A stretch of DNA of 64,000 bases from an uncultured Verrucomicrobiae bacterium. GTDB lineage: Bacteria > Verrucomicrobiota > Verrucomicrobiia > Palsa-1439. The translations under genes and the position numbers were made by a program. The stretch covers positions 2,852 to 66,851 of the forward strand of contig CAWFPN010000010.1 in the NCBI GenBank assembly GCA_963817685.1, given 5' to 3'. The notes beneath the pieces are model-generated. The model was not told the DNA's origin, did not search any database, and saw only the letters and a list, made by a program, of their open reading frames with translations. Positions 4,686-25,653 of the stretch are shown here, piece after piece (position 1 is the first letter of the stretch; the number at the start of each line of letters is the position of its first letter).

Positions 4686-4729
4686 CCCGGCACGCTGCAG
4701 GACGCGCTTTGCCCAACAACCCCCTGGTC

Positions 4730-6898: not shown

Positions 6899-6925
6899 AG
6901 GACACAGTCCTCTTCCATCCCCGGA

Positions 6926-9900: not shown

Positions 9901-11827
9901 CGCCGCTGGCAAACACGGCAATGAACTCCTGGTTCAGGGGAAATGGACCGGGAACATTGTTGGAATCACCCACGAGCAATGCGTCACGAACGGCTGTGTC
10001 ATAGTTGACGGCTTCAATATTATATTCGCCGCCGTTCTGCCCGGAAACCTCCAACCCGTCGCTCCAACTGTCGTTCTGGATGCGCGCCCCATTCCCGTAA
10101 GCGGACGCGATAAACGAAACTTCATCCGTAATGCAGAAAACACACGTGTCAAGCACGGCATCCAGATTACAAGGAGGGGCAAATTGATCGGCAATCGTGT
10201 GCGCGCTTTGTGAGAAAATACGGGAACTGCCGATGCGGCCGAACGGCGAGACACCCAGCCCGAGGTTGAAGACGCCGGACGTGGACACCACGATGTTCGT
10301 CCCGCCGCCTGTGTCGAAGAAATTCGTGCAGGCCACGGCCGGTGGATCCTGGTTGAGGATGCAAAACTGCTGCGTCGTGATGAGTAAATTCGGGAGAGAA
10401 ATGAAGAACGTCTGGGTGCCCACGCCCGAGCACGCAATGCTGATATTGGTGCAGGGGAGCGTCCCAGGCGGAGGGTTCCAGTTGGAGAAGCAAACATTCG
10501 TGGTCACCTCTCCATTGCCGCCCGTACAGGGGAAGGCATAGCTGAATGTCGTCTTCGGATACGAGTCTTCCGTGCAGGTAACGGTCTGATTGGGGGCGGT
10601 GTAATAGCCGGCGATGATCGAGGCCACGAATGTGCCGTGCCCGCAGAAGTCCTCCCAACCCGCAAAGTTGTTGTTCAATCGCGGACAGCCAAAGGTATCC
10701 CCAAATTGCACGTCTCCGGAGGTGCCGTTGGCCAGGAACAGCGGGTCCGGCTGCAGATAAGCCACGCGCGTGGCATTCCCCCGATTGCCAAACTCGAAGA
10801 AAACGGGATTGGGGAACAGGGGAACGGACGTGTCGAGTCCCGTGTCCGCCACGTCGATAATCGGATAGGCATCCTGGTTGGTGAACGATGACAGACCGCC
10901 GCTGACCACATTGGTCAGGAAGTCCAAATACGTAAGGCCGCCGACCAACGGCGAGTGGCCGGGAAGCTGGTTCGTCTGGCTGGCCAGAATCAAGTCCTGT
11001 TCCTCGTCAAACAGCCGTCTCGATTCGATCTTCTCAATCCAAATGACGTTGGGCAATTGCGCAATGGCCGGAAGGTCGGACGCCTGAACGCTCAACTGCA
11101 AAACCTGTTGGCGCAGCAATTGATACGACCCCGATTGTTGCCCGTGTGAATAGGCTTCCAGCGCGCCGACCGCCTGGGGCACCTCCGGACCGTCAACCAG
11201 CCCCACCCGAATGTCAACGCCGCCCCCGGACTGGACGGCAGAGGCGAGGTCCTTGGAAATCTTGTACGCGGGACGATACGGCCCAATCCATTGGATCGGC
11301 CCCTGGGGGTCGAGTTGTCCACGGAGTTTCTGTTCCGCTGCCGCATCCAGCCAGATAATGTAGGCGTTGTTGGGAACGTAGGAGATGATGGTCACGCCTC
11401 CCACCGCGTTCACCCCCGCCAGCCAGTCGGGCCGCACAGGTCCCCGGAATTGCAACAGACGCAAACGCTTGCCCGTCGTCTCAACCTCCCGCACCGCGCC
11501 CGGGCTCGACGAGTCGCCCACGGTCGTATCGACCGACGCGGCATTCAGCTCGATCCGGTTGAAATAGTCGGCCCGCGCCGCGCGACCGCCAAAGTTCTTG
11601 GCAACATTCTGGATCTGTGCTTCGGTGCCCTGGACCACCCAGTACGAACCGTAGTCGTCGATTTTTTGGATTCCCTGCTGTCGAAGCTGGGCGATCGATT
11701 CACCGGCCTTGGGGTAGATGATGGCTTTATGGTGGTCAGCGGCCCCCTGAGTCTGCCCCTGAACGCCCAAGGGCAACACGAGACCCAAAATACACAGCAT
11801 CCAGAAACATCCTCGCAAGACTCTCAT
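6926..11827 (-). CDS. Large secreted subtilisin-family (S8) serine protease with PPC-like module and three choice-of-anchor-D/ASH-type Ig repeats
   Basis: Catalytic Asp IIDVADTGLD, His CGHGTFVASIIAG, oxyanion Asn QNDSWS, Ser SGTSFAAPAVAGG. Start moved to the internal ATG (complement 11825-11827), giving signal MRVLRGCFWMLCILGLVLPLGVQG. Ig repeats such as LDFGTQQIGTNVSQTITVTNCGSVALSITGV...STCSFNVTFTP. Confidence 0.85.
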   Translation of the reverse strand: MRVLRGCFWMLCILGLVLPLGVQGQTQGAADHHKAIIYPKAGESIAQLRQQGIQKIDDYGSYWVVQGTEAQIQNVAKNFGGRAARADYFNRIELNAASVDTTVGDSSSPGAVREVETTGKRLRLLQFRGPVRPDWLAGVNAVGGVTIISYVPNNAYIIWLDAAAEQKLRGQLDPQGPIQWIGPYRPAYKISKDLASAVQSGGGVDIRVGLVDGPEVPQAVGALEAYSHGQQSGSYQLLRQQVLQLSVQASDLPAIAQLPNVIWIEKIESRRLFDEEQDLILASQTNQLPGHSPLVGGLTYLDFLTNVVSGGLSSFTNQDAYPIIDVADTGLDTSVPLFPNPVFFEFGNRGNATRVAYLQPDPLFLANGTSGDVQFGDTFGCPRLNNNFAGWEDFCGHGTFVASIIAGYYTAPNQTVTCTEDSYPKTTFSYAFPCTGGNGEVTTNVCFSNWNPPPGTLPCTNISIACSGVGTQTFFISLPNLLITTQQFCILNQDPPAVACTNFFDTGGGTNIVVSTSGVFNLGLGVSPFGRIGSSRIFSQSAHTIADQFAPPCNLDAVLDTCVFCITDEVSFIASAYGNGARIQNDSWSDGLEVSGQNGGEYNIEAVNYDTAVRDALLVGDSNNVPGPFPLNQEFIAVFASGGQGASGNVGGFGDIRVTAPATAKNVITVGASDNVRVDGSGCAANSDQADSYQVASFSGVGPTLDGRFKPEIVAPGSSVYGALTGLRLGIKESDCTIEPVSGEQTCNDPNGSSSSFLDPPLGCDSGTSFAAPAVAGGIQLLWWYFQNRLTNELGQALLQPSPAMAKAYLCNSARYLPFQDPTTGTMDTLPSIAQGMGEMDLQRMFDGIPRTIRDESTPRAIDVPLVTTNPAPQQTYFSQSGQSYEVSGFVMSNGLPFRVTLAWTDAPGTPAAQKELVNDLDLEVTVAGQTYKGNWFVGSQSVPGGTFDSVNNMESVFVPNVFVDPVAGTPYKVIVRAANIGGNGVPNIKGTSLGQDFALVIYNSESPTDVPNMATNNACSTALSVTNFPYTFTNILDTSVYANVQPSPSAAQGGSDEFFKLPLPTPGTTFNIDTTGSAFDTVLSVWKVQVLPQTVFVRGECGALIEVASNNGGTSPSFVSFTADGSNDYFIVVEPHNGGTGGPMQLNVNATTTAISLSPSPVVFPNQVAGTTSPAQIVTYLDGTTVNVGISTVVITGTNAADFVIQSQTCQDSTVPPGSNCTISVAFAPTTNGTRTAELEVYDDATGSPRIARLIGVGLPSAPLVCLSSTGLDFGTQQIGTNVSQTITVTNCGSVALSITGVGITGGATNDYATSSVASCSSIAAGSTCSFNVTFTPTAVGSRSTTLLLTNNATFGPLNIPLSGNGMQPTPGICASAAGVGFGNQPVSTVSPEQDITITNCGTASLVISNITVTGPNAGEFIVSNLCNGASLSINGVCTIPVRYAPINATNESASLVISNNSPNNPLIVSLTGTGAGSQPDVSISKSLNLKQFVGRNILSPTNALSKQTVILTGGRGSKHVFYVMFQNLGNNPAYFDLGVVESFSSTNTTARYFLGAKPSESTEVTSMVESQTLTTATLEPGAYTSDPTMLRVEIDIGKKAPKGTNSVVITATTVSEVPTRSDQVQAVVVVK

Positions 11828-11918
11828 CCGTTGGCTCCTCCACGCTTCTCTACATGAATCAATCGGTGCGGCTGGTAAGGGGGAAGGTATCAAAAGACAT
11901 TTTCACATTGCAACCAGA

Positions 11919-14327
11919 ATGTTCGGCATCCCCCGTCCCTCCCATGAATCCCGCAAAGAATTCTTCCTTCCACGCGACCCAGATGGTACACCTTTCAGCG
12001 TGGCGCAGGAGTTTGCAAGCGTTTTCTCAGGTTCGCCTCGCAGACGGTGCCCCGTCCTGTTGTTGACCGGCATCTGTCTGGCATCGCTTTTCATCGGCGC
12101 CACCCGTTCCCCCGCAACCGGCTCCGACAGCGACACCCCTTCCGCCTCCCAATGCGCCAGTGCGGGACGCGCCGCTTTCGACAATGGCCAATTTGACGAG
12201 GCAGTCGCACAATGGCGCACCGCGGCGCGGTTGTGCGAGGCAAATGGCGACGACACCGGCCGGATGGAGGCGTTGATCAACCTCGGCAACGCCTACGAAT
12301 CGCTGGGACAACAAACCCTCGCCGTGTCCGTACTCGAAAAGGCCGTCCATCTGGCGGAATCCTCCGGGGACAACACCCGTCTGGCCCTGGCCAAAAACAG
12401 CCTCGGCGCAGCCGGCACGTCCGCCCGCCAATTCGGTCCCGCCGAGCAGGACCTGCGAGAAAGCCTGGCCATGGCACGCGGCAGTCATGACACAAAGACC
12501 GCCGCGTCGGCCCTGAACAATCTCGGCAACCTGCTGGCCGATCAGGGCAAGACCGCCGACGCGCTGGATGCCTTCCAGGAATCCGCCTCGCTCGCCCAAC
12601 AGACCACCAACGATCTCCTCGCCGCCCGCGCGCTCGGCAACGCCGCCGCCACCGCCCTCCGCGCCGGGCAAACCGCCGATGCGGCGCGGTTGAACGGCGC
12701 CGCGCTCGGTCTGCTCCGCGATTTGCCGCCCTCGCACGATCTGGCGTTTCTCCTGGTCGGCGCCGCACAAACCGATTGGCAGTTGAACCAACACAGTGCC
12801 GAAGCCGCCTGCCGGCAGGCCCTGCTCATTGCCGAAAAAATCAGCGACGAACGCGCGAAAACGTACGCCCTGGGCATGCTCGGCCGGATCTATGAATCGC
12901 AGCACGACTACGACAAGGCCTTGTCAGCCACGCGCCAGGCCGCGTTCATCGCCCAACAAATCCAGGCCCCCGACGCGTTGTACCGCTGGGAATGGCAGAC
13001 GGGCCGCCTGCACAAGGAACAGGGCGACCGCGCCGCCGCCATCGCCGCCTATCGACGCGCCGAGCAATCCCTCCGGTTCATCCGCCATGATCTCGGCTAC
13101 GGTTCCTGCGCCGCCTGCGCGCCCTTCCGCGAAGCGGTCGGCCCGCTGTACCTCGAACTGGCCGACCTGTTGCTCCAGCAGGCCGAGTCGCTGAAGGACG
13201 AACAGGCCCGGCAACAAACGCTGCTCGAAGCCCGCGACACAGTCGAACAATTGAAGTCCGTCGAACTGGAGGATTATTTCGAGGACGAATGCGTCAGCCT
13301 GTTGCGCGCCAAAACCACCCGCATCGAAACCATCAGCCCCACCACGGCCGTCATTTACATTATCACCCTGCCCGACCGCACCGTCCTGCTGGTGGGATTG
13401 ACCTCGGGCCTGACCCAATTCAGCCTGCCCGTCGGCGAAGCGGACCTCACCGCCGAGATCCGCCTGTTCCGCACCCACCTGGAGAAACGGACGACGAACG
13501 AATACCTCGCCGAAGCGCAACAGCTTTACCGCTGGCTCATCACCCCGATCAAGGACACGCTGGCCGCCCACCACATCGACACGCTCGTCTTCGTCCCCGA
13601 TTCCGCCCTGCGCACCATCCCGATGGCCGCGCTGCATGACGGCGACCATTTCCTGATCGAACAATTCGCCGTCGCCGAAACACCCGGCCTGACACTGATG
13701 GCACCGCGGCCCATTTCCCGCGACCACATCCATGCCCTGACCGGCGGCCTGTCCATCGCCACCCAGGGGTTCCCGGCCCTGCCCTACGTCAGCGCGGAAT
13801 TGCAGCAGGTCCACGCGCTGTTTGGCGGCCCGGACCTCGCCAATGCCGACTTCGTCATCCCGAAACTCGAAAAGGATTTTTCCGATGAACAATTTTCCAT
13901 CGTCCACTTCGCCACCCACGGCCAATTCGACCGCAACGCGGGCGACAGTTTCATCCTGACCTACGACGGGAAACTGACGCTCGACCGTCTCGAAGACATG
14001 ATCCGCCCCGGCCAGTACCGCGGCCAGCCGGTGGAACTGCTCACTCTCAGCGCCTGCCAGACCGCCGCCGGCGACGACCGCGCCGCCCTCGGCCTGGCCG
14101 GCGTCGCCGTCAAAGCCGGCGCCCGCAGCGCCCTGGCCACCCTCTGGTTCGTCAACGACGAATCCACCGCCACGCTGATCACCGATTTCTACAAGACCCT
14201 GCGCAACGAAAAAACCTTCTCCAAAGCCAAAGCCCTCCAACAAGCCCAGATCAAGCTGATCGCCGACCCCCGCTACGACCACCCCTGCTACTGGGCCGCC
14301 TTTGTCATGATCGGCAACTGGCTCTAA
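11919..14327 (+). CDS. Secreted TPR-repeat CHAT-domain (caspase-like) protease
   Basis: N-terminal hydrophobic segment RRRCPVLLLTGICLASLFIGA. Multiple TPR-like repeats (ALINLGNAY, ALNNLGNLL). CHAT C-terminus FVPDSALRTIPMAAL, IVHFATHG (His), LLTLSACQTAAG (Cys), YWAAFVMIGNWL. An alternative GTG start lies near 11999. Confidence 0.85.
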   Translation: MFGIPRPSHESRKEFFLPRDPDGTPFSVAQEFASVFSGSPRRRCPVLLLTGICLASLFIGATRSPATGSDSDTPSASQCASAGRAAFDNGQFDEAVAQWRTAARLCEANGDDTGRMEALINLGNAYESLGQQTLAVSVLEKAVHLAESSGDNTRLALAKNSLGAAGTSARQFGPAEQDLRESLAMARGSHDTKTAASALNNLGNLLADQGKTADALDAFQESASLAQQTTNDLLAARALGNAAATALRAGQTADAARLNGAALGLLRDLPPSHDLAFLLVGAAQTDWQLNQHSAEAACRQALLIAEKISDERAKTYALGMLGRIYESQHDYDKALSATRQAAFIAQQIQAPDALYRWEWQTGRLHKEQGDRAAAIAAYRRAEQSLRFIRHDLGYGSCAACAPFREAVGPLYLELADLLLQQAESLKDEQARQQTLLEARDTVEQLKSVELEDYFEDECVSLLRAKTTRIETISPTTAVIYIITLPDRTVLLVGLTSGLTQFSLPVGEADLTAEIRLFRTHLEKRTTNEYLAEAQQLYRWLITPIKDTLAAHHIDTLVFVPDSALRTIPMAALHDGDHFLIEQFAVAETPGLTLMAPRPISRDHIHALTGGLSIATQGFPALPYVSAELQQVHALFGGPDLANADFVIPKLEKDFSDEQFSIVHFATHGQFDRNAGDSFILTYDGKLTLDRLEDMIRPGQYRGQPVELLTLSACQTAAGDDRAALGLAGVAVKAGARSALATLWFVNDESTATLITDFYKTLRNEKTFSKAKALQQAQIKLIADPRYDHPCYWAAFVMIGNWL

Positions 14328-14447
14328 CGGCCGGCTGATCGTTCTGGCTTGAAAATTCCTTCAAAAAAGTTAAACCTATCTTTGTTGGTCAGACGGGAAA
14401 TATGGGACGCTTTCCGCTGACCCTGATAGCCGTATGAATGTCAGAGC

Positions 14448-16520
14448 ATGACGCTTATGAAGCGGGCGTTACAATCGGTCTTCCTCGTTTGCCTCGTCAG
14501 CTTGCTTTGCACCGGCGCCTATGCTGGCCCTTACACTTATACGCTGATCGCCCAGACCGGCGGGGAATTCACCAATCTCGGATCATCCGCGGCGCTGAAT
14601 AATCTCGGCACGGTGGCGTTTTCCGGGGTAACAACCGACGCAGGCGCGGGCATCTATGCGGGCGGCGGTGGCCCGGTGACGGTCATCGCGAACACGAACT
14701 CATTCAGTTTCCCCAGCTTCGGTCCCTTGCCGGGTATTGACGACTACGGATCGGTTGCCTTCGAGGCCAACTACACAAGTTACTGCAATAACGGCTCCGG
14801 GTATAAATTCGGCTACAGCGGGATTTTTACGGGCACCGGCACCAACGACATCCAGGGGGCTTATTCGGGGCAAACCCAGGCGGGCGACTGCGAGGGCGGT
14901 GAGACGTATCCGTACTTCCAGGCATTCGGCAACCCCGTCATCAACAACTCCGGCACCGTTGCTTTCAGTGTGTACGTCAATTGTTGCTCGGGCAGCCCGG
15001 GCCCCTACAACCCCGATCTGGTCGAGGGCAAACTGGGCTACGGAGGCAGCTTGTACCCTTCGACCGGCATCGATGGAATCGGAGCATACGGTGTCCTGAA
15101 CAATGCAGGCCTGGTCGCCTTTTCCGACGGCACCACAGTGTACACCGGCAACGGCGGACCCCTGAATATCATCGGCAGCGGAGTCAGCCCGGCGCTCAAC
15201 GATGCCGGGACCGTGGCATTCCTGACGATGAGCCCGGCGGTCGTGGTCGGTAACGGCGGGCCGCTGACCACCATCGCCGACACCAGCGGCGCGTACAGCA
15301 ACTTCGGTGTCGTGGTCAACACCGGCTCCGGCACGTACATCTCGGGGAACGCCGTATCGATCAATAACTCCGGGTCGGTGGCCTTCCTGGCCAATCTGCG
15401 CTCCGGCGGCAACGGGATTTTCACCGGACCCAATGCCGTAGCCAATCGCGTGATCGCCGCAGGTGACGCCTTGTTTGGCTCGACCGTGTCAAACGTGGCC
15501 TTTAGCGCGAACCAGTTGAGCTTCTATGGGGCGGTGTCATTTTCCGCGGTCCTGGCTGACGGGCGGACGGTGATTGCCCGGGCCGATCCCGCCGCCCTGC
15601 AGCCGCCCGGCCCCGCCGCGCTGAACTTGGTCTCCAACAACGTCCTGCTGAGTTTCCCCACGCTTTCGAACTACCTCTACGAAATCCAGAGCACACCTGA
15701 CCTAGTCTCGGGAGTGTGGAGCACCATTGCCAGCAACCTGCCCGGCGTGGGCGGTGTGCTGACGTACAGCGATCCCATCAGCCAGGTCTCTCAACGGTTT
15801 TATCGGGCCGCAACCACAGGAGTGCATGTGCGCGTCCCGATTTTCGATAATACCGCCGACGCGCAGTACTCCAACGGCTGGTTCAGCAGCGAAAATGGCG
15901 GGACCGGCTTCGGAAGCTGGACGCTCCAACCGCCCTCTGTGGTCGGAAACACCAATGACGGCTACTTCCTTGGGTCATCAACGAACAACGCCTTCGGCGC
16001 CCCGCCGGGAATCGATGTGAAGGGAATTTCGTGGGGGATGTATGCCAACGGCAGCAACTACGCGACCGCCTTCCGCGGCTTTTCCTCGTTGACCATCGGC
16101 AGCACTTTCAAAGTCGACATGGACAATGGGTTCATCGACTCGGGCAATTCCGACGGCTTCGTGCTGCGCAACGGCAATGCCAACGGCAGCTATTCCAACT
16201 ACAACACGAACGCCCGTTTCGAATTCCTCTTCCTGGGCGGCGGAGACAGTTACGCCGTCGTCGATGCCGGCGGCTACAATCCCATCGGAGTGCCGTTCAC
16301 AGGCACCGGCCTGCACCTGGTCTTCACGCTCGGCACCAACGATACCTACACGTTCCAGGTCATCGACAATGCCACCGGCAACACCGACACCAATATCACC
16401 GGCACCCTCAGCGGCGCCCCCGCTAGCACCATTGACAGCATCGCCCTCTACAACCGCAACGCCGGCGCCGGCCCGCTCAACGACGCCTTCTTCAATTCCC
16501 TGCAGATCATCGGGCCATGA
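14448..16520 (+). CDS. Secreted NxxGxxAF tandem-repeat protein with RFYR-type beta-sandwich and a ~225-aa C-terminal domain of unknown function
   Basis: Signal peptide MKRALQSVFLVCLVSLLCTGAYA. Six NxxGxxAF repeats (NNLGTVAF, DDYGSVAF, NNSGTVAF, NNAGLVAF, NDAGTVAF, NNSGSVAF). VWSTIASNLPG...QRFYRA. The C-terminal domain is shared with the next gene. Confidence 0.8.
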   Translation: MTLMKRALQSVFLVCLVSLLCTGAYAGPYTYTLIAQTGGEFTNLGSSAALNNLGTVAFSGVTTDAGAGIYAGGGGPVTVIANTNSFSFPSFGPLPGIDDYGSVAFEANYTSYCNNGSGYKFGYSGIFTGTGTNDIQGAYSGQTQAGDCEGGETYPYFQAFGNPVINNSGTVAFSVYVNCCSGSPGPYNPDLVEGKLGYGGSLYPSTGIDGIGAYGVLNNAGLVAFSDGTTVYTGNGGPLNIIGSGVSPALNDAGTVAFLTMSPAVVVGNGGPLTTIADTSGAYSNFGVVVNTGSGTYISGNAVSINNSGSVAFLANLRSGGNGIFTGPNAVANRVIAAGDALFGSTVSNVAFSANQLSFYGAVSFSAVLADGRTVIARADPAALQPPGPAALNLVSNNVLLSFPTLSNYLYEIQSTPDLVSGVWSTIASNLPGVGGVLTYSDPISQVSQRFYRAATTGVHVRVPIFDNTADAQYSNGWFSSENGGTGFGSWTLQPPSVVGNTNDGYFLGSSTNNAFGAPPGIDVKGISWGMYANGSNYATAFRGFSSLTIGSTFKVDMDNGFIDSGNSDGFVLRNGNANGSYSNYNTNARFEFLFLGGGDSYAVVDAGGYNPIGVPFTGTGLHLVFTLGTNDTYTFQVIDNATGNTDTNITGTLSGAPASTIDSIALYNRNAGAGPLNDAFFNSLQIIGP

Positions 16521-18073
16521 ACACTAAAACTGCATTGAGGAGCAACCCAGCCACGCGTTTCATCCCGCTTTTCACGCTTTTCGGGATCCTTTGGTTTTCA
16601 ACCCAGCCGGTGACAACCAGCGCGCAACTCATTCCAGTAAGCCAGTGGCGTGAAGTGTACGCCGAGGTCTGCAATACTTCTACGGGTGGATATCTCAATC
16701 TCAACATTTCGAGCGGTCTTGGGCTGTTTAACCAAACCGTAGATGTCGCGGGCGACGCCGAATACCCTTGTGGAGATATCAACCAGAATGCACGAGCGAC
16801 GCAGTTATCGTGGATTACCCCGTCGAGCATTTTTGCGACGGGGAACCAATGGGAAACATACGGGAACGGCTTCTCCACGTTCAACGCGACCTGCGATGTC
16901 GCGGTTGCCTGCTATTATAGCCTGACGGGATCCGTCTCCAATCCGGAAGGCTTCGTGGAACTCGATGGTCCAACCAACGTGATCGGCATTGTGTCCAACG
17001 GCGTCTTTGCCTTTTCCGGAGTAATGACGCCCGGCCTCTACGCGATTAGCGCCGGGGTGACTGGCCAGAACTTCGAAAATGGGACCTTTAGTTTCGACCT
17101 GGAATTTCCTCCGGCACCTCCTCCGCGGATCAGTTCCGTGACCGTGCAAGGCAACGACGTGCTGCTGCAGTGGGCGGCGCCTCCGGGGACCAATCTGGTG
17201 CAGGCATCCAACGGCGCGGCCAATGGCGGTTACTCCAACAACTTCGTCACCATCAGCCCGCCCATCATCATTCCCGGCATCAACCTTCCGGTGGCCACCA
17301 ACTACCTCGACGCCGGCGGCGCGACGAATTTCCCGGCCCGCTACTATCGCATCGCTTCCAGCACCCCGCCGGTGCCCAAGCCAACGCTGGCCGGCGACAA
17401 TGCGGCGGATCCGGGCTACACCAACGGCTGGACCACCGGCAGCTTCGGCGGCAGCGGGTTCAGTGTCTGGACGTTGACGGCCAGCGGCGTGATTGGCAGC
17501 GGCAGCAACGGCTTCTTCATCGGCTCGTCGGCGAACAACGCGTTCCAAACATCGCCGGGCATCGATACCAACGGCGTCTCCTGGGGCCTGTATGCCAATA
17601 ACAACAATTTCACCGCGGCCTATCGGCAGTTCGCTACGTCACTCCCCGTCGGCGGCGCGTTCCAGGTCGCCATGGACACGGGGTTCATCGACCCCGGCAA
17701 TGCGGACGGGTTCGTCCTGCGCAACAGCAACGCCAACGGCAGCTACACCAACTTCAACACCGGCGCCCGGTTCGAGTTCCTGTTCCTGGGCGGCCAGAAC
17801 AGTTACGCCGTCGTCGACGCCAGCGGCTACAATCCCGTCGGAGTGCCCTTCACCGGCACAGGCTTGCAGCTCGTCTTCACCCTGGGCACGAACGACACCT
17901 ACAACCTGGCCGTGATCGACAATGCCACCGGCAATACCGACACCAATATCACCGGCACCCTCAGCGGCACCCCGGGCAGCACCATCGACAGCATCGCCCT
18001 CTACAACCGCAACGCCGGCTCCGGCTCGCTCAACGACGCCTTCTTCAATTCCCTGCAAATCATCGGCCCCTGA
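16517..18073 (+). CDS. Secreted protein, paralogous C-terminal ~226-aa domain (unknown function)
   Basis: The ATG overlaps the upstream stop (ATGA). Signal-like RFIPLFTLFGILWFSTQPVTTSA. ARYYRIA beta-sandwich. The C-terminal 226 aa are about 75-80% identical to residues 466-690 of the upstream protein, and both end NDAFFNSLQIIGP. Confidence 0.8.
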   Translation: MNTKTALRSNPATRFIPLFTLFGILWFSTQPVTTSAQLIPVSQWREVYAEVCNTSTGGYLNLNISSGLGLFNQTVDVAGDAEYPCGDINQNARATQLSWITPSSIFATGNQWETYGNGFSTFNATCDVAVACYYSLTGSVSNPEGFVELDGPTNVIGIVSNGVFAFSGVMTPGLYAISAGVTGQNFENGTFSFDLEFPPAPPPRISSVTVQGNDVLLQWAAPPGTNLVQASNGAANGGYSNNFVTISPPIIIPGINLPVATNYLDAGGATNFPARYYRIASSTPPVPKPTLAGDNAADPGYTNGWTTGSFGGSGFSVWTLTASGVIGSGSNGFFIGSSANNAFQTSPGIDTNGVSWGLYANNNNFTAAYRQFATSLPVGGAFQVAMDTGFIDPGNADGFVLRNSNANGSYTNFNTGARFEFLFLGGQNSYAVVDASGYNPVGVPFTGTGLQLVFTLGTNDTYNLAVIDNATGNTDTNITGTLSGTPGSTIDSIALYNRNAGSGSLNDAFFNSLQIIGP

Positions 18074-18280
18074 ATATTCGCTGGCGCAGACGGCAAACAT
18101 GTGCGATGGTAGCGCCGGTATGATATATGCAATTGGCATACGTCAGGCGGCCGCCAGCGCCGTCACCGCAGTTGTGTGCCCCGGAAGGCGCAGACTCCGC
18201 AGGCCCCGCCTGCCAGGCGCGCCTACAGCGCTTCGTGACCTTCGCGCCTTCGTGGTGAAACTCCGATGCCCGGACAGCGG

Positions 18281-18340
18281 AAACGTCCAACCTAGTCCAA
18301 CCCAGTCAAACCTAGTCAAACCTAGTCCAACCTTAAATCC
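18281..18340. repeat. Helically phased 10-bp tandem repeat (4 good units plus 2 degenerate flanking units)
   Basis: aaacgtccaa|cctagtccaa|cccagtcaaa|cctagtcaaa|cctagtccaa|ccttaaatcc, in exact 10-bp register in the 459-bp intergenic region upstream of DUF928. Confidence 0.8.
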
Positions 18341-18453
18341 TCGAGACGGGCAGCCCATCCGCGTAATCCGTGGATATTCTAATCCGGCCCAATACGACCT
18401 AATACGGCCTTAATCATTTTTGAGAATAAGGGCGGCGGACCCGCTGAAAACAA

Positions 18454-18482
18454 TTGCAGAAAGCCGGCACCCGGTATATTAT
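18454..18482 (+). promoter_or_regulatory. Candidate sigma-70 promoter for the DUF928 gene
   Basis: TTGCAG, then a 17-nt spacer, then TATTAT. It lies ~50 bp upstream of the ATG at 18533, which is preceded by AGGAGA at 6-nt spacing. Confidence 0.35.
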
Positions 18483-18532
18483 ATATGGAGCATGGACTAG
18501 GGTAGCCATTGCAAATGAATAGGAGAATTGTC

Positions 18533-19306
18533 ATGAAGCACGGGTTACTTAAGTCATGCGCCAGTCTCGCGGTTGGCAGTACAATCATCTTTTCACTCGG
18601 CTGCGTTGCGCAGGCCGAATCTTCCACCGACCAGGCCATCGCCAGTTCCGGCGAGTTGGCCGGCGGCGCGCCGCGCGCGCAATCAGTTTGGGCGCCCATT
18701 TACCGGCCGCCGTTCCCGAACGCCCCGCGTGTCCGCGTGGACGGCCTGTCGCGCGGCGCCAACGACGCGGCCCTGGCGTTGACCGTGCTGGCGCCGGAAC
18801 ACGTCGGGCTGACGACCAAGGACCAGCCTTCCCTGTTCTGGTTCCAGTCCAAGGCGGCCAGGACCCGGTTCGAACTGACCATCGTCGCCGCCAAGGAAAT
18901 CAAACCGATTCTCGAAACGCAGCTCGATGAGCCGACCAACGACGGCATCCAACGGTTTCGCCTGTCCGACCACGGCATTAAATTGAAGAAGGGCGTCGAT
19001 TATCGCTGGAGCGTGGCGATGGTGCTCGACCCGGACAACCGGTCGAAGGACGTTGTCGCCAGCGGCGTGATCCGGCGCATCGCGCCCAGCGCGGCGCTCG
19101 TCGAACGCCTGGCAAAATCCCCGTCGGACGCCGCGGCGATCTACGCCGACGAAGGTGTCTGGTACGATTCGATGGAAGCGCTCTCGGACTCAATCGCGCA
19201 GCAGCCGCAAGACAAGGTGTTGCACGAGGAACGCGCGATGTTCTTCATGCAAGTCGGCCTGAAAGACGCCGCCGTCTACGAAGCCCGCACCGCCAGCGCG
19301 AAATAG
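18533..19306 (+). CDS. DUF928 family secreted protein
   Basis: Start set at the ATG with an AGGAGA RBS. Signal MKHGLLKSCASLAVGSTIIFSLGCVAQA. DUF928-like blocks IYRPPFPNAPRVRVDGLSRG, VGLTTKDQPSLFWFQS, GVDYRWSVAMVL...VVASGVIRRI, IYADEGVWYDSMEALSDSI. Confidence 0.8.
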   Translation: MKHGLLKSCASLAVGSTIIFSLGCVAQAESSTDQAIASSGELAGGAPRAQSVWAPIYRPPFPNAPRVRVDGLSRGANDAALALTVLAPEHVGLTTKDQPSLFWFQSKAARTRFELTIVAAKEIKPILETQLDEPTNDGIQRFRLSDHGIKLKKGVDYRWSVAMVLDPDNRSKDVVASGVIRRIAPSAALVERLAKSPSDAAAIYADEGVWYDSMEALSDSIAQQPQDKVLHEERAMFFMQVGLKDAAVYEARTASAK

Positions 19307-19329
19307 ACAGCGCCCCTTTCCTCTGAATT

Positions 19330-19390
19330 GTAGCCGCGAAACATTTTCGCGGCTTTTGGGCAACGGACCGCGAATGAGATTCGCGGCTAC
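19330..19390. repeat. REP-like double-hairpin element with GTAGCCGC...GCGGCTAC termini (copy 1)
   Basis: gtagccgcgaaacattttcgcggcttttgggcaacggaccgcgaatgagattcgcggctac. It has 8-bp terminal inverted repeats enclosing two hairpins. Confidence 0.7.
19333..19357 (+). terminator. Rho-independent terminator candidate after DUF928 (first hairpin of the GTAGCCGC element)
   Basis: 9-bp stem gccgcgaaa / tttcgcggc with loop cat, followed by tttt. It starts 27 nt after the stop codon. Confidence 0.5.
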
Positions 19391-19410
19391 AATGAGAACA
19401 CCGCAAGCGA

Positions 19411-19488
19411 TCACCCCGAGCTTGTCGAGGGGTCTCTTCCGTTCCGTCGCCTACAGCAGAGATGCCTCGACAAACCCGGCATGACACG
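19411..19488. repeat. 78-bp hairpin repeat, copy A (downstream of tpsB)
   Basis: tcaccccgagcttgtcgaggggtctcttccgttccgtcgcctacagcagagatgcctcgacaaacccggcatgacacg, about 90% identical to copies B and C. Confidence 0.85.
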
Positions 19489-19527
19489 TCTTCACTTCAG
19501 CATCATATATATGGATGGGCGCGCGGC

Positions 19528-21192
19528 CTAAAACGCGTCAACCGTGACCTTGAAGGTCAGGCCCAGGTCCTGCAAATCGTTGTTCGGCGTCTTGATGTTC
19601 TTGAAGGCGTATCCCCAGTAAAGCTGCGCGTTCACATGGCGGTTCGGCGTGAACAGCAGGCCGGCGCCCGCGCTCCATATCGTCGTCGGATCAGGCGTGT
19701 GATTGAACGTGTTCCAGGCGCCGCCGAAATCGCAGAACGGCGCAAACTGCAGCACCGCTTCGCCGCGATGATTGAACATCACCGGCAACCGCAACTCCAC
19801 CGAAGCGTCCGCGCCCTGGTCGGCCACCAACTGGTTCACCCGGTACCCGCGCACGCTGTCGGGCCCGCCGAGGGTGAACTGTTCCAGTGACAGCAGCGGA
19901 TCGGGGCTCAACTGGACGTCGCTGCGCAGGACGAGTTGATTGGGCGTGTTGAACAGCCGCTGAACGTACTGCCCCTGGCCCAGCCAGGCGAAGAACTCCC
20001 CGTTCCGTTTCGGGTCCGAATGGGAAATGCCGAACTCATCCAACCCGACGCTGAAGGTGGAACGCAACGCCAGCACGTGGTCCTGGTTGCGGTCGGTCCA
20101 TTCCTGCCCGATGCGCAAGGCGGAGATCTCGGTGATCCCGTTGGTCGAGCCCGTGCCGCTAAAGTCGAACGCCGCGTTTCCCAGGAACGCCTTGCTGTAG
20201 CGCCGTTCGAAGGTGGCGCTCATCGCGAATTCGTCATTCGGCGTCTGGTACAACGGCTGGCGCAACGTGGCGCCGACGCGATACGATTCGCTGAAGACGT
20301 CAAGCGCCGAGAACGGTTTCTCGACAATCGAGAAGTCGTCCTTGCTCCCGTACAGCCGCAGCGTCGTGTCGTAGGCCGTCACCGGCAGCATGTAGGAGGC
20401 GGACTCGTTGTCGAAATCGGAGAACTTCCAGCCGTGATTGCCGCCTTCGGCGACGCCGTAGGTGACATCGAGCGGGTCGCTGTGGCCCGTCAAGTTGCGG
20501 TCGCCGGCCAGCAGCAGGATCTCGTCCGCGCCGACGCTCGGCGGACGGTCGTTGTCCACCTGGATGGCGAACCGGAACGGATTCGGGTCCTGCACGTGGA
20601 CGTCGAGGTAGCTCTGGCCCGGCAACGCGCCCGGTTTGAGTTCCGCGTTGACCTGCGAGACGTTCGGGTCCTGCCGCAGGAGCTGCAAGCCTTCCTTGAG
20701 CCGGTCCATGTTCAGCGGCGCCGTGGCCCAGCGGGCGAGTTTGCCTTTGATGTAGGATTTGTGCAGCCAGCGGTTGCCCGAAATGCTCATGCCGGTCAGC
20801 ACGCCCTCGGTGATCCGCATCGTGATCACGCCGCCGGCGGCCGGTTGCTCCGGCAACACCGCGCCGGAATTGACGTAGCCGTGATTGATGTAAAGCATCG
20901 TCACCGCCCGGCGCGCGTCCTCCAGTTCCTCGCCGCTGATCTCCCGCCCCGTGTACGAGGCAACGACCCCGGCCAATTCCGCGCTGGTGAACACATGGTT
21001 GCCCTCAAAGCGAAACTCGCGCACATAGATCCGCCCCGCCGTGGAGAGATTGCCGGACGACAAAGGCAACTGCAGCGCCGGGACCGCGAGCGGGTCCGCA
21101 AAAGCGGGTGCCGCGAGAAAGACGAAGAGGATAAACACCAGGATTGGACTAACAAACCTGTCACCCCGAGCTTGTCGAGGGGTCTCTGCCAT
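19528..21192 (-). CDS. Two-partner-secretion outer-membrane transporter (ShlB/FhaC/HecB family, TpsB)
   Basis: Start placed at the ATG at complement 21190-21192, giving signal MAETPRQARGDRFVSPILVFILFVFLAAPAFA. POTRA segment IYVREFRFEGNHVFTSAELAGVVASYTGREIS. Beta-barrel ending FKVTVDAF. The listed 644-aa ORF is a 5' extension through intergenic repeats. Confidence 0.8.
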   Translation of the reverse strand: MAETPRQARGDRFVSPILVFILFVFLAAPAFADPLAVPALQLPLSSGNLSTAGRIYVREFRFEGNHVFTSAELAGVVASYTGREISGEELEDARRAVTMLYINHGYVNSGAVLPEQPAAGGVITMRITEGVLTGMSISGNRWLHKSYIKGKLARWATAPLNMDRLKEGLQLLRQDPNVSQVNAELKPGALPGQSYLDVHVQDPNPFRFAIQVDNDRPPSVGADEILLLAGDRNLTGHSDPLDVTYGVAEGGNHGWKFSDFDNESASYMLPVTAYDTTLRLYGSKDDFSIVEKPFSALDVFSESYRVGATLRQPLYQTPNDEFAMSATFERRYSKAFLGNAAFDFSGTGSTNGITEISALRIGQEWTDRNQDHVLALRSTFSVGLDEFGISHSDPKRNGEFFAWLGQGQYVQRLFNTPNQLVLRSDVQLSPDPLLSLEQFTLGGPDSVRGYRVNQLVADQGADASVELRLPVMFNHRGEAVLQFAPFCDFGGAWNTFNHTPDPTTIWSAGAGLLFTPNRHVNAQLYWGYAFKNIKTPNNDLQDLGLTFKVTVDAF

Positions 21193-21238
21193 TCCGTCGC
21201 TTACAACAGAGATGCCTCGACGAACTCGGCATGACACG
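21161..21238. repeat. 78-bp hairpin repeat, copy B (contains the predicted tpsB start codon)
   Basis: tcaccccgagcttgtcgaggggtctctgccattccgtcgcttacaacagagatgcctcgacgaactcggcatgacacg. Confidence 0.85.
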
Positions 21239-21293
21239 CTCTTGTTTGAGCATGACACGTCGTTGTTAGTGTATGACACGCCCTTGTTGACGA
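21231..21293. repeat. Three tandem 21-bp units starting ATGACACG
   Basis: atgacacgctcttgtttgagc / atgacacgtcgttgttagtgt / atgacacgcccttgttgacga, with period 21 (21231, 21252, 21273). Confidence 0.75.
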
Positions 21294-21322
21294 ACAACCC
21301 TGGCGCCAGGATTGCCAAGCTG

Positions 21323-21400
21323 TCACCCCGAGCTCGTCGAGGGGTCTCTGCCGTTCCGTCGCTTACAACAGAGATGCCTCGACGAGCTCGGCATGACACG
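21323..21400. repeat. 78-bp hairpin repeat, copy C (tpsA-tpsB intergenic)
   Basis: tcaccccgagctcgtcgaggggtctctgccgttccgtcgcttacaacagagatgcctcgacgagctcggcatgacacg. The arms ccgagctcgtcgagg and cctcgacgagctcgg form a perfect 15-bp inverted repeat. Confidence 0.85.
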
Positions 21401-21430
21401 GCTGTGGCGGGAACACCACGCCTGGCGGAC

Positions 21431-23677
21431 CTAAGGCTCGTCATGCGGGCTGCTCGATTCAAGCGACGGCTGCAGGTTGTCCGGTTCGATGGGCGCGCCG
21501 CCGCTGCCGGTCAGGATGAACGTGCTGATCCCGCCGTGTTGTTTGAGCGCGCAACTCTCGCGCAACTCCGACGCGGCATCCAGCGGCGTCTCCGCCAACG
21601 GAATCAGGCTGCCCACCAGCGCCAGGTACGGCGCGGTGACCTGGACGCTGCCTTGCAACCCAAACTGCGATGAGGCCGTGATCTTGCTTTGCGATTCGAC
21701 GAAGAAATCGGAGGTGATGTTGATATTGCCGCCATGGCCCGTGATCGCATCGGCGGTGATCTGGCTCTTGTTCAACGCGACCACCGAAGGATCGATTGTG
21801 ATGTTGCCGCCGTCGCCGTTGACCGCTGCCGCGCTGATCTGGCTGTTGAACAAGGAAACCGCTCCCAGCGTCGTGATCGTCACGTTCCCGCCATTCCCCT
21901 CCGCCTCCGCCGAAATCAGCCCATCGTTCAACTTGATGTTCGAACCTGACCCGCCCGTCACGTCAATGTTCCCGCCATCGCTCTGCGCCGATGAAACGCT
22001 CAAGTCCGCATCATTCTCAATCAGCAACAACCCCGACACCCCCAGCGCGATGCCACCCGCATCACCTGAACTGGTGGCCGAAGAGGCAATCGAAGCTCCC
22101 GTGTTCAAAGTCAGATCCTTCACCTGAATGTTGATGTTCCCCGCATCCCCCGTCGTCTGCGAAGAAGCCAAAACCTCCGCCCCATTCTGCAAAGCCATCG
22201 TCCCCGCATGAATGAGAATGTCGCCTCCCGGCCCCGTTACTGGGCCGCTGTCGTTGCGAGCTTCTGAAGAGATTCCAGTGAATGAGGCTTGATCCTTGCC
22301 ATCCATACTAATGGACGAGGCGGTGATGGTGATATTTCCGGCTGCCGATGGGCTGAAGGTCGAGGTTTGGATCGCCGCATCTGCAACCAGTTGAAGTGTA
22401 TCGGTGTTGATGATGAGGTTCCCTGCCGGTCCTTCATTACTGGTACCAAAGAGACTGCTATTCGCCAAGCGGATACTGGTGGCGGTGATGGTGAGATTCC
22501 CGGCAGCACCAGGTGTCGATGTTTGGACGCTAATGAGACTGTTCTCAAGGTCGAGCGAACCGGTCTTGATTGTGATATCGCCGGCGTTGCCTGTACTTGA
22601 TGCGTCATTCGGGAGTGTGCCAGTCGATATCGCTGCGCTGTTCTCCAGTTGAATCAAAGCTGCATTCAAATTAATGGACGAGCCATTGCCGGACTCGAGA
22701 TTCAGTGCGCTGAAAGTCGCACCGTTCAAGTCGATCACGCCTCGAACGTCCACTTCGATGCCCACGCCGTTCTGGGCGCTCAGGTTGTCTGCACCAAGCA
22801 CACTGCCGGGATCCATGCTCAGGCTGTCCGCGTTGACCACCAGCTTCCCCGGCCCCACGATGCCGTCACTGGAAACTTCGACATCGGCGGCATTGACAAA
22901 CGTGACGGCACCGAGTGTGGCGAACCCGGACGTATCCACCGTCGCCGACGGGTCGGTCACATCCAGCGCCAGTTCGCCGGGCGATTTGATGCTGATCAAA
23001 TTCATCCTGCCACCGGGCGCCAGAATGACGGCCCCGTCGATGGTGATATCGCCACCCACGAGGGAGAAGCCGAGTTGATCGGGCATGGTGAGCATGCTCT
23101 GGCTGACGGTGATTGCCCCCGGAGTGCCGCTGAGAAATCCAAAGGCGCTGACCGGCGCGGCGGTCAGCACGTCGTTGGCTGGATTGGCCGCATCAAACCG
23201 TCCACCGTCGGCCAGCTTGACGTAACTGGCGGTCGTAGCCGTGAACGCACCGCTGACGTTTACCTGGGCGTTCGGTCCGAACATCATGCCGAACGGATTG
23301 ATCAGGAAGAAGTTTGCCCCGGCAATGTCGCAATTGATCGCGCCGTCGATGCTGGAAGGACTGCCGCCCGTCACGCGTGCGATCACATTGTGGATGTTCG
23401 CCGGGCCGGTGAAATCGGCGGTATCGCCGGTCGCAAGATTGAACTGGCTGAAACTATGAAAGAGATTGTTCCCGACAGTCTTGCCCAGCGTGGCCGGGAT
23501 GATGTAGCCCGGCCCCGTAAGCGGCCCGCTCGGCCCGACGGTGCCGTCGAGCGTGACCGTGCCGGCAAGGCAGGTGGCGGCAAGCAAGAGCATCGCCGCA
23601 ATCGTAGGAGCGCCCTTCCGGGCGCGACATGCCAAGAATCGCGCCCGGAAGGGCGCTCCTACGGGACAATTACACAT
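21431..23677 (-). CDS. Short TpsA exoprotein (filamentous-hemagglutinin N-terminal TPS domain plus beta-helix repeats)
   Basis: TPS motif GNNLFHSFSQFNLATGDTADF. About 9 rungs such as AGNLTITATS, AGNITITASS, GGNVTITTLG, GGNITIDPS, GGNINITSD. C-terminus RESCALKQHGGISTFILTGSGGAPIEPD. Start ambiguous: the ATG at 23677 gives the Arg-rich n-region MCNCPVGAPFRARFLACRARKGAPTIAAMLLLAATCLAG, while the ATG at 23593 gives MLLLAATCLAG. Confidence 0.8.
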   Translation of the reverse strand: MCNCPVGAPFRARFLACRARKGAPTIAAMLLLAATCLAGTVTLDGTVGPSGPLTGPGYIIPATLGKTVGNNLFHSFSQFNLATGDTADFTGPANIHNVIARVTGGSPSSIDGAINCDIAGANFFLINPFGMMFGPNAQVNVSGAFTATTASYVKLADGGRFDAANPANDVLTAAPVSAFGFLSGTPGAITVSQSMLTMPDQLGFSLVGGDITIDGAVILAPGGRMNLISIKSPGELALDVTDPSATVDTSGFATLGAVTFVNAADVEVSSDGIVGPGKLVVNADSLSMDPGSVLGADNLSAQNGVGIEVDVRGVIDLNGATFSALNLESGNGSSINLNAALIQLENSAAISTGTLPNDASSTGNAGDITIKTGSLDLENSLISVQTSTPGAAGNLTITATSIRLANSSLFGTSNEGPAGNLIINTDTLQLVADAAIQTSTFSPSAAGNITITASSISMDGKDQASFTGISSEARNDSGPVTGPGGDILIHAGTMALQNGAEVLASSQTTGDAGNINIQVKDLTLNTGASIASSATSSGDAGGIALGVSGLLLIENDADLSVSSAQSDGGNIDVTGGSGSNIKLNDGLISAEAEGNGGNVTITTLGAVSLFNSQISAAAVNGDGGNITIDPSVVALNKSQITADAITGHGGNINITSDFFVESQSKITASSQFGLQGSVQVTAPYLALVGSLIPLAETPLDAASELRESCALKQHGGISTFILTGSGGAPIEPDNLQPSLESSSPHDEP
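23604..23662. repeat. Perfect 24-bp inverted repeat (11-nt loop) at the tpsA translation start region
   Basis: gtaggagcgcccttccgggcgcga-catgccaagaa-tcgcgcccggaagggcgctcctac. The arms are exact reverse complements. Confidence 0.9.
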
Positions 23678-23753
23678 GAGATGACGCAAGTGGGAGAGGC
23701 CTGAGGCCTCTCCCACCGCATGTTGCACAGATGCTTTGCCTGCTGCAGCCATC

Positions 23754-24242
23754 CTACTGGTTGATAATGATCATTACCGAGTTCGTGTTGTTGTTTGGAT
23801 TCGACTCTTTGATGATGCCCGATCCATCCGCGACATCGCAGACGAAATTGGTGCCCAGCGCAGTCCCTTGGGGAATCGTGATCGTGCCCGACCAAGAATA
23901 CGTTGCACCGGGGCCCATAAGGGTGGGGATTAAGTGGGACTCCAAGAGACAGCTTGACGTAAGGTCGTTGCTGCTGGTGCAGAGGTAGATGTAGTCGTAG
24001 AAGCTCCCGCGCGTATAGCCCGACTGGTTTGAGGTGACATCGCTGATGGGGATTTGATCGCCCAGGTTTGCGCTGTTTGTCACGGTCACCGATGCGATGA
24101 CCAGATCGGGGAGCGCCAAGGGCGGGAGAAGGGGGCCGCCGCTTCCACCGTCCTGCGCTTGTGCGCGATACGGCAACACGGTCATTGCGGCCACTACGAT
24201 CATGATTGCTGCCCAGAGGTACTGTCTGTTTCCTTGCGTCAT
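23754..24242 (-). CDS. Secreted CARDB-like domain protein
   Basis: Signal YLWAAIMIVVAAMTVLPYRAQA. PDLVIASVTVTNSANLGDQIPISDVTSNQSG...FVCDVADGSGIIKESNPNNN resembles the CARDB pattern. First gene of the CARDB-tpsA-tpsB string. Confidence 0.6.
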   Translation of the reverse strand: MTQGNRQYLWAAIMIVVAAMTVLPYRAQAQDGGSGGPLLPPLALPDLVIASVTVTNSANLGDQIPISDVTSNQSGYTRGSFYDYIYLCTSSNDLTSSCLLESHLIPTLMGPGATYSWSGTITIPQGTALGTNFVCDVADGSGIIKESNPNNNTNSVMIIINQ

Positions 24243-24753: not shown

Positions 24754-24815
24754 GTAGCCGCAGGCTTTAGCCTGCGCTGTCGGCCCAATCTGCGCACCCT
24801 AAAGGGTGCGGCTAC
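24754..24815. repeat. REP-like double-hairpin element with GTAGCCGC...GCGGCTAC termini (copy 2)
   Basis: gtagccgcaggctttagcctgcgctgtcggcccaatctgcgcaccctaaagggtgcggctac. Same termini, length (62 vs 61 bp) and two-hairpin layout as 19330..19390. It overlaps the stop codon of the G/Y/W-rich gene. Confidence 0.7.
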
Positions 24816-25546: not shown

Positions 25547-25653
25547 CGTCAATCACCTCTACCAGATTAGACGCACAAAAGCAGGTTTCGATTCAAAAAC
25601 AATCCCGTCAAAACCGGTTCCCGCAGCCACGCAACGGGTTGCGGGCCGGTCGA

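Follow-up and report, generated by a model that had tools for sequence, protein, structure and literature searches.

We analysed a 64,000-nt stretch of DNA (hereafter the window) from an uncultured Verrucomicrobiae bacterium (contig CAWFPN010000010.1), in which genes for a tetratricopeptide repeat (TPR)-CHAT caspase-like protease, a DUF928 protein and the two proteins of a two-partner secretion (TPS) system, the exoprotein TpsA and its partner TpsB, lie close together. These four core genes are linked far beyond chance, and functional linkage of CHAT, DUF928, TpsB and TpsA is close to certain. The module is undescribed and is widespread in environmental bacteria and Cyanobacteria. As read from its sequences, it would be a TPS system that comes with its own exported caspase-like protease and a DUF928 adaptor, and to which a CHASE2 transducer belongs either ancestrally or commonly.

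We assessed the linkage in 80 loci containing relatives of the window DUF928 protein (the best 80 of 221 matches, one genome per species), whose six-frame open reading frames (ORFs, taken stop-to-stop with approximate start codons) were searched with the window proteins. Taxon labels of metagenome-assembled genomes (MAGs) were taken as given, a few being clearly mis-binned. By raw counts, uncorrected for phylogeny, CHAT was present in 67 of the 80 loci, TpsB in 67 and TpsA in 58, with many gaps coinciding with contig ends. Among the 33 complete loci (≥8 kb on each side of DUF928), CHAT was found in all 33, TpsA in 30, TpsB in 29, and all three in 28. Gene order and strand differed between lineages across the 80 loci: CHAT-DUF928 may be convergent with TpsB-TpsA, TpsA-CHAT-x-DUF928 convergent with TpsB, or the genes ordered as TpsA-TpsB-CHAT-x-DUF928 or DUF928-TpsA-TpsB-CHAT. 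Hosts included Verrucomicrobiota, Beta-, Gamma- and Deltaproteobacteria, Rokubacteria and Methylacidiphilales. The linkage therefore survives rearrangement across phyla, implying a functional module, and this shuffled synteny bears out the suggestion of a portable module made in a preliminary description of the window, which was based on the letters and ORF translations alone.

The same description had named genes for CHAT, DUF928, ShlB and filamentous haemagglutinin (FHA) proteins as recurrent neighbours in Cyanobacteria. Plasmids annotated by the Prokaryotic Genome Annotation Pipeline agree with this: at eight cyanobacterial DUF928 loci, the gene is adjoined by CHASE2 (seven loci), CHAT (five) and an FHA N-terminal domain protein (four), and a Pseudanabaena plasmid has the order ShlB-CHASE2-FHA-CHAT-DUF928. 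A search of 8 million full texts was likewise consistent with its statement that no functional study was known, as the module is described nowhere among them, no paper joins CHAT to two-partner-secretion terms or CHASE2 to haemagglutinin-type proteins, and DUF928 was not found beyond one WD40 survey, which mentions a CHASE2-DUF928 neighbourhood in Nostoc (PMC5587647).

Core proteins and their variable partners

ORFs of the window were searched with Pfam and NCBIfam profiles, and motifs were located by regular expression and inspection of translations. The identities initially proposed for the four core proteins were all supported by Pfam (Table 1; details below), with DUF928 scoring 123.5 bits against a cut-off of 26, which places it within the family. 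The TPR-CHAT protein carries the motifs IVHFATHG and LSACQTA, and all 56 orthologues retain the presumed catalytic residues, His667 and Cys713, upholding the earlier view of an intact, exported caspase-like dyad. Conservation is highest in the block around the catalytic Cys (residues 701–750), where the window residue is kept in 87% of sequences on average. When PDB chains were compared with the protein by sequence, only its TPRs were matched and the CHAT region was not. Overall, it has the features of a CHAT (clan CD) peptidase, and proteolytic activity is predicted.

A signal-like segment, basic then hydrophobic, precedes the TPRs in 55 of the 56 CHAT orthologues, several of which have a lipobox-like Cys just after the hydrophobic stretch (by inspection). 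The true start of the window protein is probably downstream of the ORF start, just before a hydrophobic segment at residues ~45–62. None of the 56 split (unfused) CHAT orthologues contains a TPS domain; with a Sec-type signal and no TPS domain, these proteins should stay in the periplasm. Two related loci have overlong CHAT frames: a single 1417-aa frame at L016:5555-9805 spans the CHAT and CHASE2 positions of other loci with no stop between them, and at L058:4147-8028 the CHAT match lies inside a 1294-aa ORF. Each of the two is a true fusion or else an artefact of sequencing or frame.

TpsB matches ShlB (PF03865, 2.1e-25), POTRA_2 (PF08479, 1.4e-17) and Omp85 (4.9e-11), contains the motif VTVDAF, and aligns at its N-terminus with the orthologue in the closest related locus, L001, from 'RFV...PAFA' onwards. 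Its gene is directly downstream of tpsA on the same strand. The TPS domain of TpsA (PF05860, 1.1e-36) covers residues 91–269, with further support from NCBIfam TIGR01901 (adhes_NPXG, 1.6e-20), from the TPS motifs NNLFHSFSQFNL and INPFG, and from a match to the TPS domain of HxuA (4i84, 1.2e-5). The locus thus has the sequence hallmarks of a type Vb (two-partner) system, and TpsB-dependent export of TpsA is predicted. The beta-helix had been described as about nine G(G/A)N(I/L)TI rungs; this strict pattern occurs once, the regular expression G-[GAD]-[NDS]-[ILV]-x-[ILV] six times, and looser rung-like motifs of the form G-[ND]-[ILV]-x-[ILV] about 10 times by eye; in its strict form the motif was slightly off.

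The most distinctive part of TpsA is its C-terminal tail of ~65 aa (residues ~707–773, positions ~21434–21634), which is conserved in 57 orthologues. Over the last ~90 residues these share the consensus F[LF]xSxSxIxASSxFGxxGxVxIxAPxxDLSGxLxxLPxxLLDAExQLRxxCxxRxxGxxSSFxVxGRGGxPxxPxGxLPS, with an invariant Cys. The C-terminal motif reported previously (GGISTFILTGSGGAPIEP) is present, with the spacing C-x5-GGISTF rather than C-x8. In an AlphaFold2 (AF2) model of the last 214 residues of TpsA (97-sequence alignment), the beta-helix is confident to residue ~706 and is followed by coil (predicted local distance difference test score, pLDDT, ~50–68) over the 65 residues that are most conserved. Such strong conservation in the absence of an autonomous fold would be expected if the peptide binds a partner, is cleaved or passes through a pore.

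A profile of the tail matched 13,229 representative proteins at E≤1e-10, of which 7,619 reached E≤1e-30 (50% identity clusters), the best stretch being nearly always C-terminal in proteins of 600–2,700 aa; scores derive partly from beta-helix repeats, and the best stretches still cover the tail. A separate search with a profile of the tail alignment returned only fragments of ~200 aa or less and no domain architectures. The tail is also present in cyanobacterial fragments named 'filamentous hemagglutinin' and 'S-layer family'. These matches point to a very large, uncharacterised TpsA subfamily to which the window protein belongs, with a hallmark tail for which there is no Pfam model. Tail length varies within this subfamily. 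TpsA of the window and of other Verrucomicrobia ends ~40 residues after the first Cys, whereas proteobacterial, rokubacterial and cyanobacterial TpsA have a second Cys near the end, 44–110 residues past the first (11 of 57 genomic orthologues: L038, L046, L053, L058, L062, L064, L066, L071, L075-L077; and 34 of 35 unfused cyanobacterial homologues, P0265-P0360), often with an EAxGW...G.V.L.A element between the two. The second Cys suggests a disulfide-closed loop reminiscent of the HMW1 anchor.

Protein fusions connect this tail to the protease. On plasmid pREC3 of Acaryochloris marina, a 1756-aa fusion encoded beside DUF928 comprises a TPS domain (residues 24–229), beta-helix, tail module (807–902), TPRs and CHAT (1486–1754). 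With this protein as query and clustering at 90% identity, at least 29 clusters were found to join PF05860 and PF12770, down to 28% identity, and the tail module is located between the beta-helix and TPR-CHAT in 28 of 29 fusion clusters. It is also present in 89 of 91 unfused cyanobacterial homologues, lying 39–111 aa from the C-terminus in all but four. That the tail is the joining point in the fusions is strong evidence that TpsA and TPR-CHAT, as separate chains, also interact at this point. Two other proteins of ~1,950 aa (P0338 and P0356) contain TPS, POTRA_2 and ShlB in one chain; they resemble TpsA-TpsB fusions and may instead be gene-calling artefacts.

The DUF928 protein, whose motifs PPFPNAPRVRVDG, GLTTKDQPSLFWF, YRWSV and IYADEGVWYDSMEAL were all recovered, has a 100% identical 257-aa database entry (P0001), and its nearest named relatives are from Verrucomicrobiota MAGs. 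Its AF2 model (pLDDT 85.7, predicted TM-score 0.76) has a signal peptide, an FN3/immunoglobulin (Ig)-like beta-sandwich (residues ~70–182) and then five TPR-like helices (187–256). The best structural match in the PDB was the C-terminal domain of MtxA (4z29, E 3.7e-6, target-normalised TM 0.59), followed by FN3 domains, complement MG domains and FKBP-type TPR domains. Sequence identity to MtxA is only 16% and the function of MtxA is itself poorly defined; the match indicates a binding module as opposed to an enzyme, and nothing more. On the basis of the model, DUF928 is a non-enzymatic binding module and is predicted to serve as a periplasmic adaptor, in keeping with the 'adaptor or inhibitor' role suggested previously. 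A cleavage site shared between an R/G-rich motif near the DUF928 N-terminus and the GRGG of the TpsA tail was considered and rejected, since in the model the DUF928 segment belongs to the first beta-strand instead of being a free peptide.

The most frequent fifth partner of the module, a CHASE2 receptor, had been overlooked. In ~40 loci the interval between CHAT and DUF928 contains a gene of ~650 aa that usually overlaps the CHAT gene at its end; of six examples compared with Pfam, five encode CHASE2 plus a class III adenylate/guanylate cyclase and one (L064) CHASE2 only. CHASE2 was present in 31 of the 33 complete loci, and plasmid-borne CHASE2-DUF928 pairs sometimes occur with no CHAT or TPS gene nearby. 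This linkage likely shifts the biology of the wider family towards envelope signalling. Searching the ORFs of the 64-kb window with 37 CHASE2 queries yielded no credible homologue, the sole match being marginal (E 0.0025, one query) and to a short opposite-strand ORF at 23685–23930, and CHASE2 was not found in the loci of the closest relatives (L001-L009, L019, L020). The window therefore carries the four-gene variant rather than the five-gene form with CHASE2. We also considered whether CHASE2 might be a degenerate CHAT/caspase fold, which was discarded: hhalign of the periplasmic domain against CHAT gave a probability of 0.2%, and the first apparent match was spurious, CHAT ORFs having read on into the CHASE2 gene downstream.

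In place of CHASE2, the clade that includes the window carries a small secreted protein (162 aa in the window) as a conserved accessory. Its designation as CARDB was not supported, since the profile match (PF07705, 18.1 bits, E=0.003) falls below the gathering cut-off of 22.7 bits and the L002 orthologue has no Pfam match, but the gene itself is conserved, with homologues upstream of TpsA at six loci (L002, L004, L007, L008, L019, L020). An Ig-like beta-sandwich is plausible for this CARDB-like protein, and its stop codon is 1 nt from the first ATG of the TpsA ORF. A protein of ~600 aa that is also Ig-like adjoins tpsA in 16 other loci, and the three compared with Pfam are HYR or HYR-like.

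Proposed mechanism and alternatives

In the model we put forward, TpsB would export the TpsA beta-helix to the cell surface, and the tail would enter the pore last and stay reachable from the periplasm. There is precedent for such a position, as the C-terminal parts of FhaB, HMW1 and CdiA stay in the periplasm or pore and are processed there or used as anchors. The periplasmic TPR-CHAT protease would dock on the tail via its TPR array, and either cleave it, leading to TpsA maturation or release, or be activated there for another envelope substrate, with DUF928 regulating or bridging this step. In most lineages, DUF928 and CHAT would be coupled to a CHASE2 receptor, usually with a class III cyclase, conveying the state of the surface to the cytoplasm. 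The clade of the window would have lost CHASE2 from the locus, carrying the CARDB-like protein instead, and in the window, with no CHASE2, proteolytic maturation or release of TpsA is probably the sole output. Four points of this model are inferred: tail topology, which substrate CHAT acts on (including cleavage of TpsA), the role of DUF928 and the link to CHASE2 signalling. As a whole, maturation or docking with CHAT acting on the TpsA tail and DUF928 as adaptor seems to us about as probable as all alternatives taken together. Of the preliminary interpretation it retains the portable module, export and the adaptor fold, but not the two NxxGxxAF-type proteins encoded between CHAT and DUF928 as partners of the module, nor the omission of CHASE2.

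Several observations weigh against this model. The window tail reads GSGG, with Ser replacing the mostly conserved Arg of GRGG, hence any cleavage at that Arg could not happen alike here. The tail could equally be a plug or an anchor, with no proteolysis involved, and TPR-CHAT of the fused proteins might, in principle, reach the cell surface instead of being kept in the periplasm. Palindromic elements located between tpsA and tpsB (Table 1) might have perturbed expression in this genome. Moreover, with no CHASE2 within 64 kb, any signalling role is extrapolated from relatives.

An alternative is trans-envelope proteolytic signalling with TpsA as the surface sensor, where a surface event alters the TpsB-held tail and thereby activates the docked TPR-CHAT, comparable to activation of the Craspase TPR-CHAT (see below) by a partner protein, and the protease cuts DUF928 or the tail to generate the CHASE2 ligand; the transducer of the window would then be encoded elsewhere or lost. 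Such a role is favoured by the presence of CHASE2, for the most part joined to a class III cyclase, in nearly all complete loci, where its typical place is between CHAT and DUF928, and by its position next to DUF928 at seven of eight cyanobacterial plasmid loci, even without CHAT or TPS genes. CHASE2 cyclases of Sinorhizobium meliloti are also known to sense a protein signal via an outer-membrane partner (PMC7529298). However, CHASE2 was found neither in the window (64 kb) nor at the loci of its nearest relatives, where the other four genes are well conserved, so the core function needs no CHASE2 in cis, and DUF928 as a CHAT substrate is conjecture. We regard this alternative as doubtful. A related proposition of a new kind of signalling machine, that the TPS exoprotein is a surface antenna, that its tail in the TpsB pore controls the periplasmic CHAT, that the product cleaved by CHAT, or else DUF928, is the physiological input of CHASE2, and that the window represents a transducer-less form, we consider unlikely.

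The fusions could also be read as effectors of the polymorphic-toxin or contact-dependent inhibition (CDI) type, given that their layout (TPS domain, filament, boundary motif, enzyme) and small secreted neighbour resemble CdiA-CT/CdiI. TPR-CHAT would then be the delivered effector, the tail a pre-toxin boundary and DUF928 the immunity protein or inhibitor, for which its Ig-like beta-sandwich would be suited, as such proteins can inhibit cysteine proteases (chagasin is an example). This is very unlikely, considering that the C-terminal enzyme is always the same and well conserved (residues 701–750 at 87%) rather than polymorphic, that none of the 57 TpsA orthologues has a variable toxin tip, the C-terminus being conserved in all of them, and that toxin systems do not feature linkage to a CHASE2 sensor; split CHATs, with a Sec signal and no TPS domain, also have no evident route across the outer membrane. 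We consider it similarly improbable that TPR-CHAT is a housekeeping protease degrading TpsA that has stalled or been mis-secreted, much as DegP degrades FhaB, with DUF928 as a chaperone of unfolded TpsA. Such quality control would be in line with a periplasmic CHAT, with the disordered tail of the AF2 model and with the ability of TPR arrays to bind extended peptides, but fusion of protease and substrate at one conserved junction in at least 28 clusters suggests a specific regulatory step, and tight coupling to a receptor likewise favours regulation over bulk degradation.

CHASE2 was defined in 2003, and to our knowledge the question of what CHASE2 receptors sense has been without an answer since. 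The module ties CHASE2 input, DUF928 (which has no assigned function) and exported CHAT proteins (unstudied) to one TpsA subfamily, and leads to testable hypotheses on tail cleavage or docking, a DUF928 bridge and cyclic nucleotide output. Nostoc PCC 7120, N. punctiforme and Pseudanabaena, in which the genes are on plasmids, are tractable for this purpose. If the proposed mechanism is true, type V secretion would gain a protease-coupled and signalling-coupled branch.

Gene layout, inserted genes and flanks

The genes form two convergent strings between 11.9 and 24.2 kb, with ORF coordinates as originally called (Table 1). On the forward strand, TPR-CHAT is followed by the 690-aa gene, its 518-aa paralogue, a gap of 436 nt and DUF928; on the reverse strand the order is the 162-aa gene, TpsA and TpsB. 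All nine proteins encoded from 4730 to 24242 have N-termini that are basic then hydrophobic (by inspection), as would be expected from the signal peptides attributed to them previously.

Table 1. Genes and repeat elements of the module region in the window.
Feature	Position	Strand	Basis or remark
TPR-CHAT caspase-like protease, exported, 802-aa ORF	11919-14327	+	Pfam CHAT 1.4e-59 and several TPR families
Secreted 690-aa NxxGxxAF-repeat protein	14448-16520	+	NCBIfam TIGR05002 3e-16; no Pfam match
Secreted 518-aa paralogue of the 690-aa protein	16517-18073	+	No Pfam or NCBIfam match
DUF928 protein, 257 aa from ATG 18533 (ORF opens at TTG 18509)	18533-19306	+	Pfam 1.1e-35
Terminator-like hairpin, just 3' of the DUF928 stop codon	19327-19393	.	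Inverted repeat I3
Palindromic element, copy 1	19411-19503	.	Between the DUF928 and TpsB stop codons
TpsB (POTRA and Omp85-type barrel), 554 aa from ATG 21192; ORF open to 21462	19528-21192	-	Pfam
Palindromic element, copies 2 and 3	21161-21253, 21323-21415	.	TpsA-TpsB intergenic region
Short TpsA, 773-aa ORF (748 aa from M26)	21431-23752	-	Pfam TPS 1.1e-36
Small secreted CARDB-like (Ig-like) protein, 162 aa	23754-24242	-	Pfam CARDB E=0.003, below cut-off

The two genes between CHAT and DUF928 overlap by 4 nt, and their products are paralogous over approximately the C-terminal 400 aa (phmmer 1e-98). NxxGxxAF repeats, noted from the start, were confirmed in the 690-aa protein by its TIGR05002 match. 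In the closest relative, L001, CHAT is separated from DUF928 by 104 nt and no gene intervenes, and among the 80 loci there were no relatives of the 690-aa protein and relatives of the 518-aa protein in only two. The pair occurs in none of the close relatives, and by comparison of these loci is a lineage-specific insertion rather than part of the module, contrary to the initial proposal, in which these proteins were possible substrates of the protease. The last ~230 aa of both proteins are near-identical by eye, ending in NDAFFNSLQIIGP, with no Pfam or NCBIfam match.

Divergent from and beside the CHAT gene is a gene for a 1655-aa secreted S8 subtilase with choice-of-anchor D/ASH-type Ig domains (6926-11893, reverse strand). 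It recurs at the same place in L001 (L001:2-2470) and in none of the other loci, and was dismissed as a module member.

The hairpin downstream of DUF928 has 26-nt arms (85% complementary) and sits between the convergent transcription units. The palindromic element (~80–93 nt, no Rfam match) has three copies in the window against none expected by chance, all of which flank the TpsB gene, and copy 2 holds the ATG at 21192 that is the likely TpsB start codon; in relatives, tpsA and tpsB abut without this insert. Within the TpsA ORF, in its 5' part (codons ~30–50), a perfect 25-bp inverted repeat with an 11-nt loop (23603-23663) separates the first ATG from the hydrophobic signal core. It may be a translational control hairpin, or the real TpsA start may be downstream.

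Beyond the 162-aa gene is one for a secreted 246-aa protein (24812-25552, reverse strand) of extreme Gly/Tyr/Trp-rich low complexity (GGGWGWGRDGGG..., YYGGYHGGYYHGGYWG), which matched no family. The only structured RNA detected by Rfam over the cluster was a tRNA (25762-25834, reverse strand), and it is followed by a phage-type integrase (25927-27117) and a TrwC relaxase/helicase (28600-31794). The combination of tRNA, integrase and relaxase suggests an integrative mobilisable element abutting the module.

Comparison with known systems

The module shares with FhaB/FhaC (processed with SphB1, CtpA and DegP), HMW1/HMW1B and CdiA a TPS domain and beta-helix exported via an Omp85-type TpsB (for a general review of TPS systems, see PMC5422565). 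In those systems the C-terminal part stays at the pore or beneath it, where envelope proteases process it or it serves for anchoring. Here the protease is a clan CD TPR-CHAT protein encoded at the locus, as opposed to a subtilisin autotransporter or tail-specific protease; the TpsA is very short with a different, family-specific tail; and DUF928 and CHASE2 are without counterpart in the FhaB-type systems. From CdiA-like toxins the module differs further, in that its TpsA C-terminus is conserved (57 orthologues) and the ORF in the window ends 40 aa after the conserved Cys. With a C-terminus that is not variable, this is not a CdiA-like toxin system.

TPR-CHAT architecture is also known from Craspase, in which gRAMP/Cas7-11 holds the TPR-CHAT protein Csx29, which cleaves the small protein Csx30 to trigger signalling. 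The window CHAT differs in having a signal peptide (envelope location) and no CRISPR or gRAMP context, and no recurrent CRISPR-type neighbours were found among the 80 related loci. Given the exported protein and lack of CRISPR context, the module is not of the Craspase type.

The CHASE2 adenylate cyclases CyaK, CyaD1 and CyaD2 of S. meliloti sense a proteinaceous signal via the outer-membrane protein NsrA (PMC7529298, PMC13001267). As the only studied input route for CHASE2, NsrA/CyaK would fit the logic proposed here by analogy, in pairing an outer-membrane barrel component and periplasmic TPRs with a CHASE2 cyclase. It differs in having no TpsA/TpsB pair, no CHAT and no DUF928, and the window in turn has no CHASE2. 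The nsrA region upstream of cyaK on pSymB (L089:4355-7905), which in this strain is broken into two frames and does not appear in the plasmid gene table, encodes FecR and TPR domains (ORF 4355-6520) and a TonB-dependent-receptor-like barrel (ORF 6979-7905), and this composition led us to reject NsrA as a TpsB-like CHASE2 partner.

The Pseudomonas LapA/LapG/LapD system combines a periplasmic cysteine protease, a retained adhesin end and a cyclic-nucleotide-linked membrane protein. The module resembles it in placing a cysteine protease at the periplasmic end of an adhesin and, elsewhere in the family, in including a membrane protein for cyclic-nucleotide signalling. Lap uses a type I adhesin, a DUF920/transglutaminase-like protease and inside-out control by cyclic di-GMP, whereas the module described here has a TPS exoprotein and a CHAT protease and, in other lineages, a CHASE2 cyclase that probably signals outside-in.

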